From Escherichia phage Lambda_ev058: a stretch of 47,678 bases of DNA. The notes beneath the pieces are model-generated. The model was given only the letters and a program-made list of their open reading frames with translations, did not search any database and was not told where the DNA came from. The DNA is taken from the sequence record LR597651; one strand, written 5' to 3'. Positions 37,650-44,952 of the stretch are shown in pieces (positions within the stretch are counted from its first letter, which is position 1; each line of letters begins with the position of its first letter). Made by a program: the position numbers and the translations under genes.

Positions 37650-38347
37650 AAAACATCGCCGCACAGATGGTTAACTTTGACCGTGAGCAGATGCGTCGGA
37701 TCGCCAACAACATGCCGGAACAGTACGACGAAAAGCCACAGGTACAGCAGGTAGCGCAGATCATCAACGGTGTGTTCAGCCAGTTACTGGCAACTTTCCC
37801 GGCGAGCCTGGCTAACCGTGACCAGAACGAACTGAACGAAATCCGCCGCCAGTGGGTTCTGGCTTTCCGGGAAAACGGGATCACCACAATGGAACAGGTT
37901 AACGCAGGAATGCGCGTAGCCCGTCGGCAGAATCGACCATTTCTGCCATCACCCGGGCAGTTTGTTGCATGGTGCCGGGAAGAAGCATCCGTTATCGCCG
38001 GACTGCCAAACGTCAGCGAGCTGGTTGATATGGTTTACGAGTATTGCCGGAAGCGAGGCCTGTATCCGGATGCGGAGTCTTATCCGTGGAAATCAAATGC
38101 GCACTACTGGCTGGTTACCAACCTGTATCAGAACATGCGGGCCAATGCGCTTACTGATGCGGAATTACGCCGTAAGGCCGCAGATGAGCTTGTCCATATG
38201 ACTGCGAGAATTAACCGTGGTGAGGCGATCCCTGAACCAGTAAAACAACTTCCTGTCATGGGCGGTAGACCTCTAAATCGTGCACAGGCTCTGGCGAAGA
38301 TCGCAGAAATCAAAGCTAAGTTCGGACTGAAAGGAGCAAGTGTATGA
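37646..38347 (+). CDS. P: replication protein P (DnaB helicase loader)
   Basis: 233-aa ORF matching lambda P as recalled (MKNIAAQMVNFDREQMRRIANNMPEQYDEKPQ...). Confidence 0.95.
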   Translation: MKNIAAQMVNFDREQMRRIANNMPEQYDEKPQVQQVAQIINGVFSQLLATFPASLANRDQNELNEIRRQWVLAFRENGITTMEQVNAGMRVARRQNRPFLPSPGQFVAWCREEASVIAGLPNVSELVDMVYEYCRKRGLYPDAESYPWKSNAHYWLVTNLYQNMRANALTDAELRRKAADELVHMTARINRGEAIPEPVKQLPVMGGRPLNRAQALAKIAEIKAKFGLKGASV

Positions 38348-38634
38348 CGGGCAAAGAGGCAATTATTCATTACCTGGGGACGCATAATAGCTTCTGTGCG
38401 CCGGACGTTGCCGCGCTAACAGGCGCAACAGTAACCAGCATAAATCAGGCCGCGGCTAAAATGGCACGGGCAGGTCTTCTGGTTATCGAAGGTAAGGTCT
38501 GGCGAACGGTGTATTACCGGTTTGCTACCAGGGAAGAACGGGAAGGAAAGATGAGCACGAACCTGATTTTCAAGGAGTGTCGCCAGAGTGCCGCGATGAA
38601 ACGGGTATTGGCGGTATATGGAGTTAAAAGATGA
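38344..38634 (+). CDS. ren: Ren
   Basis: 96-aa ORF matching lambda Ren as recalled (MTGKEAIIHYLGTHNSFCAPDVAALTG...). Confidence 0.9.
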   Translation: MTGKEAIIHYLGTHNSFCAPDVAALTGATVTSINQAAAKMARAGLLVIEGKVWRTVYYRFATREEREGKMSTNLIFKECRQSAAMKRVLAVYGVKR

Positions 38635-38659
38635 CCATCTACATTACTGAGCTAATAAC

Positions 38660-38690
38660 AGGCCTGCTGGTAATCGCAGGCCTTTTTATT
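38660..38690 (+). terminator. tR2-like intrinsic terminator
   Basis: Direct: AGGCCTGC-loop-GCAGGCCT stem followed by TTTTTATT, just after ren. Confidence 0.55.
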
Positions 38691-39401
38691 GTGCACAGAA
38701 AACCCCCAGCTAGGCTGGGGGTTCCGGAAAGCTTTCAGCTTTGAGCCAGTTATTAAAACCCCTTTTGATTTGTTAAAACACCTTGCGGTCTGGCAACTGC
38801 AAGTGTCAAACAAGAAATCAAAAGGGGGTCCCAATGGGGAACGAAAAGAGCTTAGCGCACACCCGATGGAACTGTAAATATCACATAGTTTTTGCGCCAA
38901 AATACCGAAGACAGGTGTTCTACAGAGAGAAGCGTAGAGCAATAGGCAGTATTTTGAGAAAGCTGTGTGAGTGGAAAAGCGTACGGATTCTGGAAGCTGA
39001 ATGCTGTGCAGATCATATCCATATGCTTGTGGAGATCCCGCCTAAAATGAGCGTATCCGGGTTTATGGGATATCTGAAAGGGAAAAGCAGTCTGATGCTT
39101 TACGAGCAGTTTGGTGATTTGAAATTCAAATACAGGAACAGGGAGTTCTGGTGCAGAGGGTACTACGTCGATACAGTGGGTAAGAACACGGCGAAGATAC
39201 AGGATTACATAAAGCACCAGCTTGAAGAGGATAAAATGGGAGAGCAGTTATCGATTCCCTATCCGGGCAGCCCGTTTACGGGCCGTAAGTAACGAAGTTG
39301 GATGCAAATGTCAGATCGTGTGCGCCTGTTAGGGCGCGGCTGGTAAGAGAGCCTTATAGGCGCATTTGAAAAACCTCCGGCTATGCCGGAGGATATTTAT
39401 T
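38691..39401 (+). mobile_element. IS200 insertion sequence (IS200/IS605 family)
   Basis: About 711 bp inserted in the ren-ninB spacer. Left-end stem-loop CCCCCAGC-TAG-GCTGGGGG (38702-38720), tnpA, and right-end hairpin CCTCCGG-CTATG-CCGGAGG (39374-39392). Boundaries inferred by comparison with the recalled lambda spacer; accurate to about 5 bp. Confidence 0.75.
38834..39292 (+). CDS. tnpA: IS200 transposase TnpA (Y1 HUH)
   Basis: 152-aa product from MGNEKSLAHTRWNCKYHIVFAPKYRRQ..., with the HxH motif (ADHIHML) and catalytic Tyr region; closely matches IS200 TnpA as recalled. Confidence 0.9.
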   Translation: MGNEKSLAHTRWNCKYHIVFAPKYRRQVFYREKRRAIGSILRKLCEWKSVRILEAECCADHIHMLVEIPPKMSVSGFMGYLKGKSSLMLYEQFGDLKFKYRNREFWCRGYYVDTVGKNTAKIQDYIKHQLEEDKMGEQLSIPYPGSPFTGRK

Positions 39402-39418
39402 TGGGGGAGAGGGAAGTC

Positions 39419-39859
39419 ATGAAAAAACTAACCTTTGAAATTCGATCTCCAGCACATCAGCAAAACGCTATTCACGCAGTACAGCAAATCCTTCCAGACC
39501 CAACCAAACCAATCGTAGTAACCATTCAGGAACGCAACCGCAGCTTAGACCAAAACAGGAAGCTATGGGCCTGCTTAGGTGACGTCTCTCGTCAGGTTGA
39601 ATGGCATGGTCGCTGGCTGGATGCAGAAAGCTGGAAGTGTGTGTTTACCGCAGCATTAAAGCAGCAGGATGTTGTTCCTAACCTTGCCGGGAATGGCTTT
39701 GTGGTAATAGGCCAGTCAACCAGCAGGATGCGTGTAGGCGAATTTGCGGAGCTATTAGAGCTTATACAGGCATTCGGTACAGAGCGTGGCGTTAAGTGGT
39801 CAGACGAAGCGAGACTGGCTCTGGAGTGGAAAGCGAGATGGGGAGATCGGGCTGCATGA
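39419..39859 (+). CDS. ninB: NinB recombination protein
   Basis: 146-aa product from MKKLTFEIRSPAHQQNAIHAVQQILPDPTKP..., matching lambda NinB as recalled. Confidence 0.9.
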   Translation: MKKLTFEIRSPAHQQNAIHAVQQILPDPTKPIVVTIQERNRSLDQNRKLWACLGDVSRQVEWHGRWLDAESWKCVFTAALKQQDVVPNLAGNGFVVIGQSTSRMRVGEFAELLELIQAFGTERGVKWSDEARLALEWKARWGDRAA

Positions 39860-40383
39860 CTATCAAATCAAATACGCCAGCACACGACAAGGACTGCTGG
39901 CAAACGCCGCTTTGGCTTTTTGATGCACTGGATATTGAGTTTGGATTCTGGCTGGATTCGGCAGCGAGCGACAAAAATGCTCTGTGTGCTCACTGGCTAA
40001 CTGAGGCCGACGACGCGCTCAATTCTGAGTGGGTAAGCCACGGTGCAATCTGGAATAACCCACCGTACAGCAATATCAGGCCGTGGGTGGAAAAAGCCGC
40101 TGAGCAGTGCATACAACAGCGACAGACGGTAGTTATGCTTGTGCCAGAGGATATGTCAGTCGGATGGTTCAGCAAGGCTCTGGAGAGTGTCGACGAAGTT
40201 CGCATTATCACTGATGGACGGATTAATTTTATCGAACCATCGACAGGGCTGGAGAAGAAGGGAAACAGCAAAGGCTCCATGCTGCTGATTTGGCGACCGT
40301 TCATCAGTCCTCGACGGATGTTTACTACCGTATCCAAAGCGGCATTGATGGCGATCGGGCAGGGCGTCAGGAGGGCGGCATGA
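39856..40383 (+). CDS. phage DNA N6-adenine methyltransferase (Dam-like, orphan)
   Basis: 175-aa product from [26 protein letters not shown]..., with the catalytic NPPY motif (WNNPPYS); start overlaps the ninB stop. Occupies the position of lambda ninC. Confidence 0.8.
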
Positions 40384-40556
40384 GGCGACAGCGACGAAGT
40401 TTCACCGACATCATCTGCGAAAACTGCAAATACCTTCCAACGAAACGCTCCAGAAATAAACGCAAGCCAATCCCAAAAGAATCTGACGTAAAAACCTTCA
40501 ATTACACAGCTCACCTGTGGGATATCCGGTGGCTAAGATATCGTGCGAGGAAATGA
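40380..40556 (+). CDS. ninE: NinE
   Basis: 58-aa product [52 protein letters not shown]..., matching lambda NinE as recalled. Confidence 0.85.
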
Positions 40557-40900
40557 CAATGGATTATTCACAGTTAAGTGATTTTGAAATTAACAGAATG
40601 GTAGGAGACATAATTTTTAAAGGCCTTTGGGCAAGTAAACCGGAAACATCAGGGAATAACACCAACAAATGGTATTACGGAAATGCTGATACAACTTTTG
40701 AGCCATTAAATCATTTGCCTGACTACTGCAATGATCCGAGCGCTTCATGGCCGATTATTGAGAAATACAGGATTTCTATCTTAGACCAGTTAACTGAATG
40801 GTGTGTGGATGCAAAAGGCGTAAGCCCAATATTTGATACCAGACCTCTCCGCGCCGCCATTATTGTCTTTCTCCTGATGCAGGAGGCCAATAATGCTTAG
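40553..40900 (+). CDS. hypothetical protein (nin region)
   Basis: 115-aa product from [19 protein letters not shown]...; AT-rich; no recognised homology. Confidence 0.5.
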
Positions 40901-41087
40901 CCCATCTCAATCCCTTCAATACCTGAAAGGAAGCATAGAGCGGGCTTCAATGTGCACAGAGTGGATTCTATCTAGGTTTAGCGCATACAGAAGATTGCCG
41001 GTAAAGGGCATGCCAAGCAAGTCGATGCTGCATATGCAAAAGAATGCGCGCGGGAAGGTATGGCGAGAACGCAGGTTATCTGGCTGA
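40893..41087 (+). CDS. ninF: NinF-like protein with divergent C-terminus
   Basis: 64-aa ORF; the first 10 residues [10 protein letters not shown] match the lambda NinF N-terminus as recalled, but the remainder lacks the Cys motifs. Confidence 0.4.
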
Positions 41088-41106
41088 AAGAGGGGGTAAT
41101 TAAGGC

Positions 41107-41469
41107 GTGAATACTTACCACATCACACTACCCTGGCCTCCGAGCAATAATCGCTATTATCGCCATAATCGCGGGCGCACGCACGTCAGCGCAGAGGGGC
41201 AGGCATACCGCGATAACGTCGCCCGAATCATTAAAAACGCAATGCTGGATATCGGCCTGGCGATGCCTGTGAAAATCCGCATTGAGTGCCACATGCCGGA
41301 TCGCCGTCGCCGTGACCTGGATAATCTGCAAAAAGCCGCTTTTGACGCACTCACCAAAGCAGGTTTCTGGCTGGATGATGCTCAGGTCGTTGATTACCGC
41401 GTTGTGAAGATGCCTGTTACCAAAGGTGGGAGGCTGGAATTGACCATCACCGAAATGGGGAATGAATGA
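41107..41469 (+). CDS. rusA: Holliday junction resolvase RusA
   Basis: 120-aa ORF matching E. coli DLP12 RusA as recalled ([34 protein letters not shown]...). Confidence 0.95.
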
Positions 41470-41606
41470 TGTTTGAGTTTTATATGGCAGAACGTCTTCG
41501 CCACCGCTGGGTGCGTCTGCGCTTATATCGTTTCCCCGGTTCTGTTTTGACCGATTACCGAATACTGAAGAATTACGCCAAAACACTGACAGGAGCAGGA
41601 GTATGA
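41466..41606 (+). CDS. ylcG: YlcG-like small protein
   Basis: 46-aa ORF below the track cut-off, translated by hand as [46 protein letters not shown]; overlaps the rusA stop; matches DLP12 YlcG as recalled. Confidence 0.7.
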
Positions 41607-41691
41607 AGTCAGAGATAACAATCAACTAATACTGTTTTGCTGATTTTTGCTTGTAATTGGCGTTCTGGTCTGATTTTTGTGGAGTAAGTTG

Positions 41692-42069
41692 ATGCGTGAT
41701 ATTCAGATGGTTCTTGAGCGTTGGGGAGCGTGGGCGGCTAATAATCATGAAGATGTGACCTGGTCGTCCATTGCCGCCGGTTTTAAGGGATTAATTCCTT
41801 CAAAAGTAAAATCTCGCCCGCAATGTTGTGACGATGACGCGATGATCATTTGCGGGTGCATGGCCCGTCTGAAAAATAACAACAGCGATTTGCATGATTT
41901 GTTAGTGGACTATTATGTCGGCGGCATGACTTTTATGGCGCTTGCGCGTAAGCATGGTAGATCTGATTGTTGGATTGGCAGGATGCTCCAAAAAGCTGAG
42001 GGCGTAGTGGAGGGCATGCTGATGGTGTTGGATCTCAGATTGGAGATGGATGCTGATTGTTTGAGATAA
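41692..42069 (+). CDS. Q: late gene antiterminator Q (phage 82 / DLP12 QuuD type)
   Basis: 125-aa product from [33 protein letters not shown]..., matching the Q82-type antiterminator as recalled. Confidence 0.9.
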
Positions 42070-42168
42070 TTAAAGGAAAAGTTGCTGTCTGGTTATCATT
42101 AGACTAATGTTTCAAATGTTAGAATCGCAACGTAGTTATGATCATATAACAGCTTGTTCCCTGATTTA

Positions 42169-42198
42169 GCCAGCCTCCCCAAAGGCTGGTTTTTTTTC
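42169..42198 (+). terminator. tR'-like intrinsic terminator downstream of pR' (Q target)
   Basis: Direct: GCCAGCCT-CCCCAAA-AGGCTGG stem followed by an 8-T run, about 100 bp downstream of Q. Confidence 0.6.
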
Positions 42199-42225
42199 TA
42201 ATAAGTATCAATCCGGTTAGGTATT

Positions 42226-42750
42226 TTATTGTTTGACCCATAATAGTTCATTGACATTGAATCCCAATTTTTGAGCAGTACGCACATAGTCTGCTTTTAC
42301 ATTATCTGGAATAGTTGGAGTCCGTGCCAGAATCCATAGGTATTCTCTGTTCGGACCACTGACAAGAGCATACTTATACTCATCATCCAGTTTGATTACA
42401 TTATAGCCACCATAGAAGGGGCCAAAAAACGAAACCTTCAACGCTGCAGTTGTATTATCTCCTGTAAAGTATGCTTTACCTTCGCTCTCGCTCCATTTGT
42501 TTTTCGTTGGGTCATATCCACGATTAAGTACACTAATCCCTCCGTCGTTCCGTTTCCCATAAGTGGCGCTGACCTGTTCCAGACCACGTTCAAATCGGTT
42601 CTCAAGCCGAGCTATTTCATACCATTTTCCGAGGTAGCGGTTGGTGTCAAAATTTGTAATCGGCTGCACACCTTTAGGTGGTGTCGGGGCCTTACATGCT
42701 ATCAGAGTGAAAGAGAGTGCAATGCCAGTCAACACAGGCCATAACTTCAT
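42226..42750 (-). CDS. blc: outer-membrane lipocalin lipoprotein (Blc-like)
   Basis: 174-aa ORF with lipobox LIAC after a signal peptide; lipocalin motifs (RYLGKWYEIAR, KVSFFGPFYGGYNVI, EYLWILARTPT) matching E. coli Blc as recalled. Confidence 0.85.
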   Translation of the reverse strand: MKLWPVLTGIALSFTLIACKAPTPPKGVQPITNFDTNRYLGKWYEIARLENRFERGLEQVSATYGKRNDGGISVLNRGYDPTKNKWSESEGKAYFTGDNTTAALKVSFFGPFYGGYNVIKLDDEYKYALVSGPNREYLWILARTPTIPDNVKADYVRTAQKLGFNVNELLWVKQ

Positions 42751-42942
42751 AATATATCCTGTACTTTTGATAGTTGAGAGTAAGTATTAAAGATAGATGA
42801 TTACTACCGATCACCTAAAGAACTTTCCTACTATATTAGGAATAGTCCATAACAAAAAAATTGTCAGTGATGACGGCAGAAAGGCAGTTTAGGTCGTGTA
42901 CTACACTGTTAACCTGTTAATGAATTAGTCAAGGGGTAGGCA

Positions 42943-43902
42943 ATGATAAAAAAACCTGTCGTTGGGATCAGTGGTTGTTTGGCCGGTTCTTCTGTCCGTT
43001 TTGATGGTGGTCACAAAAGAGCTAGCTTTTTAATGGACAAATTACTGGAATGGGTAACATTCAAACCAGTATGTCCGGAAATGGCTATAGGGCTTCCAGT
43101 TCCGCGTCCTGCTCTACGTCTTGTTCGCTCGGCGCAAGGAAATATACGGATGTGTTTCAGCCACGACCAGAATGAGGATGTTACAGAGAAAATGACAGAG
43201 TTTAGTCGTTCTTATCTTGACAAATTAAAGGATGTATCGGGATTTGTGGTTTGTGCAAAATCTCCTAGCTGTGGTATGGAACGCGTGCGTGTATATGATG
43301 AAAATGGTAATCGTGGTCGTAAAGATGGAGTGGGACTATTTACGAGCACGTTGATGGAAAGGTTTTCCTGGCTACCGGTTGAAGAGGATGGGCGACTACA
43401 TGATCCAGTGCTTCGTGAAAACTTTGTTGAAAGAGTATTTGCTTTACATGAGCTCAATCATCTTTATAAAGCGAAATTATCAAGAAGGGAATTATTAGCT
43501 TTTCATAGCCGTTATAAGCTTCAGTTGTTGGCGCATAGCCAGGCCGGTTATAAAGAGATGGGGCCATTTGTGGCTGCAATACATGAGTGGGCAGACCTTG
43601 AATCATACTTTGAGGTGTATCGTGAGAAGCTGATGGCGATTCTCAGAAAACCTGCATCACGTAAAAATCACACGAATGTGCTGATGCATATACAGGGATA
43701 TTTTAGTAACTGCTTAAATACACGTCAGCGTAAAGAGTTGAGCGATGTTATACTTAACTATCGAGCTGGCACGCTACCTCTTCTTGCGCCATTAACTTTG
43801 CTGAAGCATTACTTGGCAGAGTATCCTGATGATTATTTGCTTATACAGAATTACTTCCACCCCTATCCTGATGAACTGGCTCTAAGACTCTTGGTGAACT
43901 AG
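42943..43902 (+). CDS. DUF523-DUF1722 protein (YbgA/TudS-like; putative Fe-S thiouracil or 4-thiouridine desulfidase)
   Basis: 319-aa ORF with conserved Cys at roughly 12, 44 and 105-110 (GISGCLAG, KPVCPE, VCAKSPSCG) in the N-terminal half and a YbgA-like C-terminal half. Family assignment is from memory. Confidence 0.55.
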   Translation: MIKKPVVGISGCLAGSSVRFDGGHKRASFLMDKLLEWVTFKPVCPEMAIGLPVPRPALRLVRSAQGNIRMCFSHDQNEDVTEKMTEFSRSYLDKLKDVSGFVVCAKSPSCGMERVRVYDENGNRGRKDGVGLFTSTLMERFSWLPVEEDGRLHDPVLRENFVERVFALHELNHLYKAKLSRRELLAFHSRYKLQLLAHSQAGYKEMGPFVAAIHEWADLESYFEVYREKLMAILRKPASRKNHTNVLMHIQGYFSNCLNTRQRKELSDVILNYRAGTLPLLAPLTLLKHYLAEYPDDYLLIQNYFHPYPDELALRLLVN

Positions 43903-44211
43903 GCGTTTGGAATGCACCAACAAGATGATTTTCTCCTTAGAGAATGTTTACAATCGTAAAAACTTCACTATGATATCTATAGTTGTACAGTTTGTAAAAA
44001 AATTCGGTTCATGCTTAAGGTAATGTTAATATGTTAATTAATGATTAATAATCAAGCAAGCCAAAAATAGTTCTGTTTAATCTAGTATTACATAAATATT
44101 TTAAAGAAAATATCAAAGTTCATGATGATATAATGAGATTTTTCTCATTGAAAATATGGCAATTTTAATATTTCCACCTATACTTACTTAACTCAAATCT
44201 AATTATGTCAG

Positions 44212-44952
44212 GTGGATGGTATGCCATGCATATGTTCTATCATTTTGGTTTTGAACTCGTTTGATATCCGGCTTGGTAAAGAAAAAATCTCTCTAAAAAA
44301 AGGAAGTGTTGTTGCTATAGAATACAATTTAAAAGTTTTCTTTTCTTCAAATAAAGATAATATAATGATCGTGGATATTGAAGAGAAAACAGTTAATGAC
44401 TTCTTTAAAAACAATACACTCTCACCTTTTTCTGTAAGAAGATTTTATTCAGCATACTTGATAGTAAACTGTACAGACTATTCATTGTTAAAGAACTTGA
44501 TAGGTTGCTTGAATTGTGATGGTGAAACTACGGCTGTAGTTAAAAATTCAATATTATTTGCATGTCTTGCTATTTTATCCTCGGAAAAAATGTTTCAGAG
44601 TTTTTTGTTTGGGTGTCTTAATAGTTTAGGAAGCAAAGTTAAGGCTATTATTCACTCGGACATATCTGCAGCATGGAGACTTTGTGATATTTCTTCAAGA
44701 CTATGTCTGAGTGAAAGTTTGTTAAAAAGAAAACTAAAACACGAAGGCTTATCATTTAGCAAATTAATTCTTGAAGAACGAATGGTGATGGCTGAAAGGT
44801 TATTAAGCTACAATTTCTATCCTGTTGGGAAAGTTGCTAAAATATGTGGTTATGAAAGCGCGTCATATTTTATAAGTGTTTTCAGAAGATATTTTGGTGT
44901 TCCCCCCCATGAATATTCATCAAGATTTTTTTTAGAAAAAGGCAAGATGTAA
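44212..44952 (+). CDS. AraC/XylS-family transcriptional regulator (AT-rich; Rns/PerA/PatE-like)
   Basis: 246-aa ORF with a C-terminal double-HTH AraC signature (KVAKICGYESASYFISVFRRYFGVPPHEY); strongly AT-rich gene and upstream region. Start codon uncertain. Confidence 0.75.
   Translation: MDGMPCICSIILVLNSFDIRLGKEKISLKKGSVVAIEYNLKVFFSSNKDNIMIVDIEEKTVNDFFKNNTLSPFSVRRFYSAYLIVNCTDYSLLKNLIGCLNCDGETTAVVKNSILFACLAILSSEKMFQSFLFGCLNSLGSKVKAIIHSDISAAWRLCDISSRLCLSESLLKRKLKHEGLSFSKLILEERMVMAERLLSYNFYPVGKVAKICGYESASYFISVFRRYFGVPPHEYSSRFFLEKGKM

Follow-up and report, generated by a model that had tools for sequence, protein, structure and literature searches.

The ninB-ninE methyltransferase gene of Escherichia phage Lambda_ev058 and its identity with the VT2-Sakai enzyme

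Two phage enzymes, T1 Dam and HP1 Dam, have been characterised as GATC methylases. A third, M.EcoVT2Dam, was reportedly cloned by Radlinska and Bujnicki in 2001 and found to methylate GATC as well, a report (PMID 11720311) that we know via the papers that cite it. Here we analyse a methyltransferase gene of Escherichia phage Lambda_ev058 (sequence record LR597651; the whole stretch of 47,678 nucleotides is called the window below), a non-Shiga toxin (non-Stx), lambda-like phage whose first 25 kb share about 99.7% identity with Escherichia phages 1H12 and Lambda_2E9. The gene is an open reading frame (ORF) of 528 nt at 39856-40383 on the + strand, between ninB and ninE, and its 175-residue product is identical at 175 of 175 positions to orf32 (NP_050531) of the Stx2 phage VT2-Sakai. 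We consider it very probable that this product is a small S-adenosylmethionine (SAM)-dependent GATC N6-adenine methyltransferase of the T1/HP1/VT2 'Dam' family, expressed in lytic growth, that tops up the GATC methylation of phage DNA.

Identity with the VT2-Sakai enzyme and family membership

In VT2-Sakai, orf32 likewise has 528 nt and sits between ninB and ninE. Of the 86 features in the VT2-Sakai record it is the sole annotated methyltransferase and, because no other is annotated there, we infer that orf32 is M.EcoVT2Dam. The two genes then share protein, length and position, and differ in their carriers, a Stx phage in one case and a non-Stx phage in the other. The possibility that a second VT2-Sakai methyltransferase is the real M.EcoVT2Dam was considered and rejected: none is annotated, and the largest unassigned ORF of the left arm, the 299-residue orf4, is a DUF551 protein.

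Published accounts of M.EcoVT2Dam agree on its target. The enzyme is known to target 5'-GATC-3' (PMC6602927, whose supplements hold nothing on it). P1, VT-2 and the T-even phages have demonstrated Dam-like activity, and of the phage Dam enzymes only those of T2 and T4 are homologous to the cellular one (PMC7139368). VT-2 and HP1 are also named among the phages with Dam-like genes (PMC7556043); these last two papers share an author with the original M.EcoVT2Dam cloning paper. The original prediction had called the target sequence of the Lambda_ev058 enzyme unknown, a statement that does not survive the comparison, because the protein is identical to one reported to methylate GATC.

Family models lead to the same enzyme class. 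The Pfam model PF05869, 'DNA N-6-adenine-methyltransferase (Dam)', matches with an E value of 6.4e-65 and 218.4 bits (cutoff 28.1), covering residues 4-169 and profile positions 1-167 of 169. The NCBIfam equivalog TIGR01712, 'phage N-6-adenine-methyltransferase', gives E 9.7e-80 and 265.9 bits (cutoff 97.05), and phrog_111 (PHROG 111, 'DNA methyltransferase') matches over the full length with E 8.6e-88. These matches are far beyond chance and, judged by sequence, place the protein, over its full length, in the family of small phage Dam enzymes. T1 Dam (NC_005833 ST20, 237 residues) and the Haemophilus phage HP1 Dam (orf13, 173 residues) belong to the same PF05869 family, with identities of 33% (E 2e-26) and 38% (E 1e-32), respectively, over the whole catalytic core. 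T1 Dam is longer at the N-terminus, by about 45 residues, and has an insertion; T1 is virulent and HP1 is a P2-like temperate phage, so that the gene context in both differs from that seen here.

Across 70 homologues, N68, P69, P70, D34, A36 and P18 are invariant, and Y71, D13, W15, Q16 and T17 are conserved in at least 90%; every family-invariant residue is present in the Lambda_ev058 protein. Residues 68-71 form NPPY, catalytic motif IV (codons 40057-40068, + strand), which follows a strand at residues 64-67 in the predicted model. The L33-D-S-A-A-S38 segment (39952-39969, + strand) forms a loop behind the first strand that resembles a shortened motif I and is a putative SAM-binding region. 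The D13-C-W-Q-T-P18 segment (39892-39909, + strand), conserved in the homologues and in T1 Dam and HP1 Dam, is a candidate contact to DNA or to the adenine. NPPY, like the WxTP segment and the LDxAA loop, aligns with both characterised enzymes.

No Pfam match was found for the protein with either PF02086, the family of host Dam, or MT-A70. The alpha-class PF02086 enzymes E. coli Dam, T4 Dam and DpnM share with the PF05869 protein the reported target, N6 of the adenine in GATC, and a general Rossmann fold, but not that family match. The best PADLOC matches are 'orphan methyltransferase' models, and no cognate restriction endonuclease is adjacent, the neighbours being NinB, NinE, NinX and RusA. 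The original prediction, of an orphan Dam-like N6-adenine methyltransferase of 175 residues with an NPPY motif, is thus borne out as to the ORF and its coordinates, the enzyme class, the motif and the orphan status. 'Dam-like' is apt for the specificity and misleading as to descent, since the protein is not a homologue of host Dam.

Proposed expression and role in the lytic cycle

We propose that the enzyme acts on the N6 position of adenine in GATC, the very site of host Dam, without being homologous to it. The gene is part of the nin region of the rightward early operon, 3' of ren and of a tR2-like terminator; expression would require N-dependent antitermination and would be confined to lytic growth, and in a lysogen the gene would be repressed like the other nin genes. 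During lytic growth the enzyme would complete the GATC methylation of fast-replicating phage DNA when host Dam lags. The progeny DNA would be protected from methylation-sensitive enzymes that cut GATC, and would look fully 'self' to the Dam-dependent processes of the host. The window holds 136 GATC sites. Such topping up appears to be the most economical role because Dam sites in the virion DNA of lambda and P22 are undermethylated, perhaps as replication outruns modification (PMC8022706).

Several points weigh against this proposal. Every E. coli host already has Dam, so the benefit is not obvious. We found no experiment in the literature on the role of a VT2-type methyltransferase in any lambdoid phage, and the function of phage Dam enzymes is described as still poorly understood (PMC7556043). 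The equation of M.EcoVT2Dam with orf32 comes from a sole annotation and not from a stated accession. GATC specificity is taken from citing papers, and an assay of the DpnI/MboI type is blind to methylation outside GATC. Finally, the observed/expected ratio of GATC, 0.61, is within the range of other palindromes (CTAG 0.55, GGCC 0.66) and gives no signal either way.

The original prediction had named protection against restriction and an influence on the lysis-lysogeny decision as possible roles. An unlikely alternative, though one that deserves weighing, is that GATC methylation by this enzyme is regulatory and not protective, the GATC state affecting phage promoters, replication, the stability of lysogeny or induction. 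A different methyltransferase of Stx phages does alter the frequency of spontaneous induction (PMC10810198). That enzyme, however, belongs to another family (MT-A70, with a DPPW motif) and acts on rRNA, and no experiment of the kind was found in the literature for the nin-region methyltransferase gene. Furthermore, a gene in a delayed-early operon behind terminators should be silent in the lysogen, where the prophage is already methylated by host Dam. We favour the topping up of phage GATC methylation in lytic growth. As a discovery the locus is of low importance, for it is an already known, widely annotated lambdoid module with a reported specificity; one point of remaining interest is what a second GATC methylase gains the phage in Dam+ hosts.

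Predicted fold and target recognition

The AlphaFold model of the protein (70 homologues) has a mean confidence (predicted local distance difference test, pLDDT) of 89.4 and a predicted template modelling score (pTM) of 0.87, and consists of a single alpha/beta domain. A sequence search of the PDB returned no relative, the best hits (E 0.24 and 0.72) being unrelated proteins. In the fold comparison PCIF1/CAPAM, the m6Am methyltransferase of eukaryotic mRNA caps, comes first among solved structures, by a small margin over DNA adenine methyltransferases of bacteria; Foldseek places METTL3/14 and METTL4 chains low in its ranking, at probabilities of at most 0.38. The better fold matches are all proteins of 320 to more than 700 residues, to whose catalytic domains 133-141 residues align. 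Because these matches are all much larger proteins, the phage enzyme appears to be the catalytic core alone.

We predict from the model a minimal Rossmann-type catalytic core of the M.TaqI/PCIF1 type that has no separate target-recognition domain. The order of elements, with the LDxAA loop after the first strand and then NPPY after the strand at 64-67, would fit the M.TaqI type. The gamma-class M.TaqI-type enzymes and PCIF1/CAPAM themselves differ in having 380-750 residues and separate recognition domains, and are 12-17% identical to the phage protein.

Neither sequence nor fold searches of the PDB found a solved structure of the PF05869 family. Candidates for reading GATC in so minimal an enzyme are S5, D13 and W15-P18 of the conserved N-terminal segment and a hairpin at residues 122-140. 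It is rather improbable, but conceivable, that the family either uses a recognition mode unseen in solved DNA methyltransferases (the N-terminal SNTP...WQTP segment, the 122-140 hairpin, or dimerisation) or has a looser specificity that serves broad anti-restriction.

The lack of a separate recognition domain in the model bears on a further reading, namely that the enzyme has a relaxed or degenerate specificity broader than GATC and acts as a wide-spectrum anti-restriction factor, of which digestion assays reveal the GATC part only. We think this very unlikely. Purified T1 Dam is said to have been GATC-specific in the hands of Scherzer et al. in 1987, which counts against it. Prophage- and plasmid-encoded methyltransferases are often promiscuous (PMC4659465), but GATC is the target reported for the identical protein (PMC6602927, PMC7139368, PMC7556043). 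In addition, strain 95NR1, with two copies of the enzyme, showed no extra N6-methyladenine (m6A) motif (PMC6602927), though in a lysogen the gene would probably be silent. M.EcoGIX, with SAY specificity, was considered as a relaxed relative and set aside as a plasmid-borne, single-strand-specific enzyme.

The match to the PCIF1 fold also raises the question of whether RNA rather than DNA is the substrate, and there is the precedent of another Stx-phage enzyme that was annotated as a DNA adenine methylase (PMC10810198). We regard an RNA substrate as highly improbable, since the identical protein is reported to act on DNA. The enzyme that sets the precedent, M.EcoPA8orf6770P / M.EcoGV, likewise comes from a lambdoid prophage and carries the annotation of a Dam-like adenine methylase. 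It is, however, an MT-A70 enzyme with DPPW in place of the NPPY found here, is encoded at another locus, near the left arm, needs the partner PNB-2 and prefers 16S rRNA (PMC10810198). Identity of the ninB-ninE methyltransferase with this rRNA methylase was rejected on the same grounds. The Lambda_ev058 protein is best read as a DNA enzyme directed at GATC.

Distribution and the nin-region module

A dozen records of lambda-like coliphages carry the DNA from ninB through the methyltransferase gene to ninE with 100% identity, and phages 434, Sf101, mEp332 and many Stx phages carry it with 98-99%; 421 phage records match it in total. At a nucleotide identity of at least 95%, the methyltransferase gene alone occurs in 1566 of 5426 complete E. 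coli genomes (about 29%), and among the E. coli matches listed it always lies between ninB and ninE and bears the annotation 'phage N-6-adenine-methyltransferase'. Relatives at the protein level were found in 2133 phage records, and close homologues, down to about 60% identity, in many enterobacterial genera, Pectobacterium, Serratia, Yersinia, Providencia and Photorhabdus among them. Among the accessory genes of lambdoid phages the methyltransferase ranks with the most frequent, and it is already publicly annotated; with such numbers the suggestion that it was worth a second look loses its force. This distribution, the intact, full-length ORF with all family-invariant residues and the activity reported for the identical protein make it scarcely credible that the nin region merely carries the gene along as an inactive relic, even though the nin-region genes of lambda are non-essential (PMC8022706).

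We compared the locus with that of lambda. Window positions 38000-38690 correspond to lambda 39936-40626 (P and ren; 99.6% identity), and positions 39396-39859 to lambda 40621-41084 (ninB; 99.6%). The similarity breaks off precisely at the stop codon of ninB (lambda 41084) and restarts within ninE, at window position 40387 and lambda 42097 (95.2%). Because of this break and restart, the alignment reads as a replacement of lambda 41085-42096, that is, of ninC and ninD, by the methyltransferase module. The proposal that the gene occupies the lambda ninC position therefore stands as to the slot, but ninD has been replaced along with ninC. Lambda NinC, which is PAPS-reductase-like, and NinD lie in the same slot between ninB and ninE and have no homology to the methyltransferase. 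The locus neatly illustrates how modules are exchanged in the mosaic nin region, its break points coinciding exactly with the boundaries of genes.

The methyltransferase ORF begins with the ATG at 39856-39858 and ends with the TGA at 40381-40383. In a program-made ORF list the frame stays open up to a GTG at 39796, which would give 195 residues. The 528-nt form from the ATG is the one annotated in VT2-Sakai, phage 1H12, PhiR63_2 and RefSeq E. coli genomes, and the TIGR01712 match begins at residue 2 of this form. Both of its ends overlap a neighbour in an ATGA: at 39856-39859 the methyltransferase ATG overlaps the ninB stop (39857-39859), and at 40380-40383 its stop overlaps the ninE ATG (40380-40382). 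The nin genes are known to be tightly packed, with ATGA junctions (PMC8022706), and translation of the methyltransferase is probably coupled to that of its neighbours, as the original prediction had it. A Shine-Dalgarno-like GGAG (39842-39845, + strand), so called from its match to the consensus, stands 10 nt 5' of the methyltransferase ATG, within the end of ninB, and an AGGAGG of the same kind, read from the sequence (40369-40374, + strand), stands 5 nt 5' of the ninE start. A GATC at 39845-39848 overlaps the first of these, probably by coincidence; the methyltransferase gene itself contains one GATC, at 40353. On the - strand, an antisense ORF of 174 residues (39990-40514) covers the greater part of the methyltransferase gene and ninE; it matches nothing in Pfam or PADLOC and was set aside as most likely a shadow ORF.

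The flanking genes are readily assigned. The recombination mediator gene ninB (orf) lies at 39419-39859 on the + strand (PF05772, E 2e-54), and ninE at 40380-40556 on the same strand (PF05322, E 3.4e-42), its similarity to lambda extending over lambda 42097-42263. Beyond ninE, positions 40559-41469 encode NinX (PF10765), a 64-residue ORF that matches no family, and RusA (PF05866); lambda carries ninF, ninG and ninH at this point. No DNA similarity to lambda was detected past window position 40553 in a comparison of window 38000-44000 with lambda 38000-44500.

Between ren and ninB, an IS200-family element occupies positions 38691-39395. Its Y1 transposase (PF01797, E 5e-38) is encoded by tnpA, at about 38834-39292 on the + strand. 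The insertion falls inside the T run of the tR2-like terminator: a hairpin of the lambda tR2 type at 38660-38683 and its T run (to 38690) are split by it from the sequence downstream. The insertion is absent from lambda and from about 10 near-identical phages and is present in PhiR63_2 (PV340574), at 98.3% identity. Lying directly 5' of ninB, the methyltransferase gene and ninE, the element could affect their transcription.

A second terminator-like hairpin (39374-39392), with 8 GC-rich base pairs and T runs flanking it on both strands, lies where the IS200-like insertion ends on its right side, 27 nt 5' of the start of ninB. The right end of the element also supplies an in-frame ATG 36 nt 5' of the ninB start at 39419, adding positions 39383-39418 to the frame, which is why mechanical ORF calling yields a NinB of 158 residues, compared with 146 in lambda.
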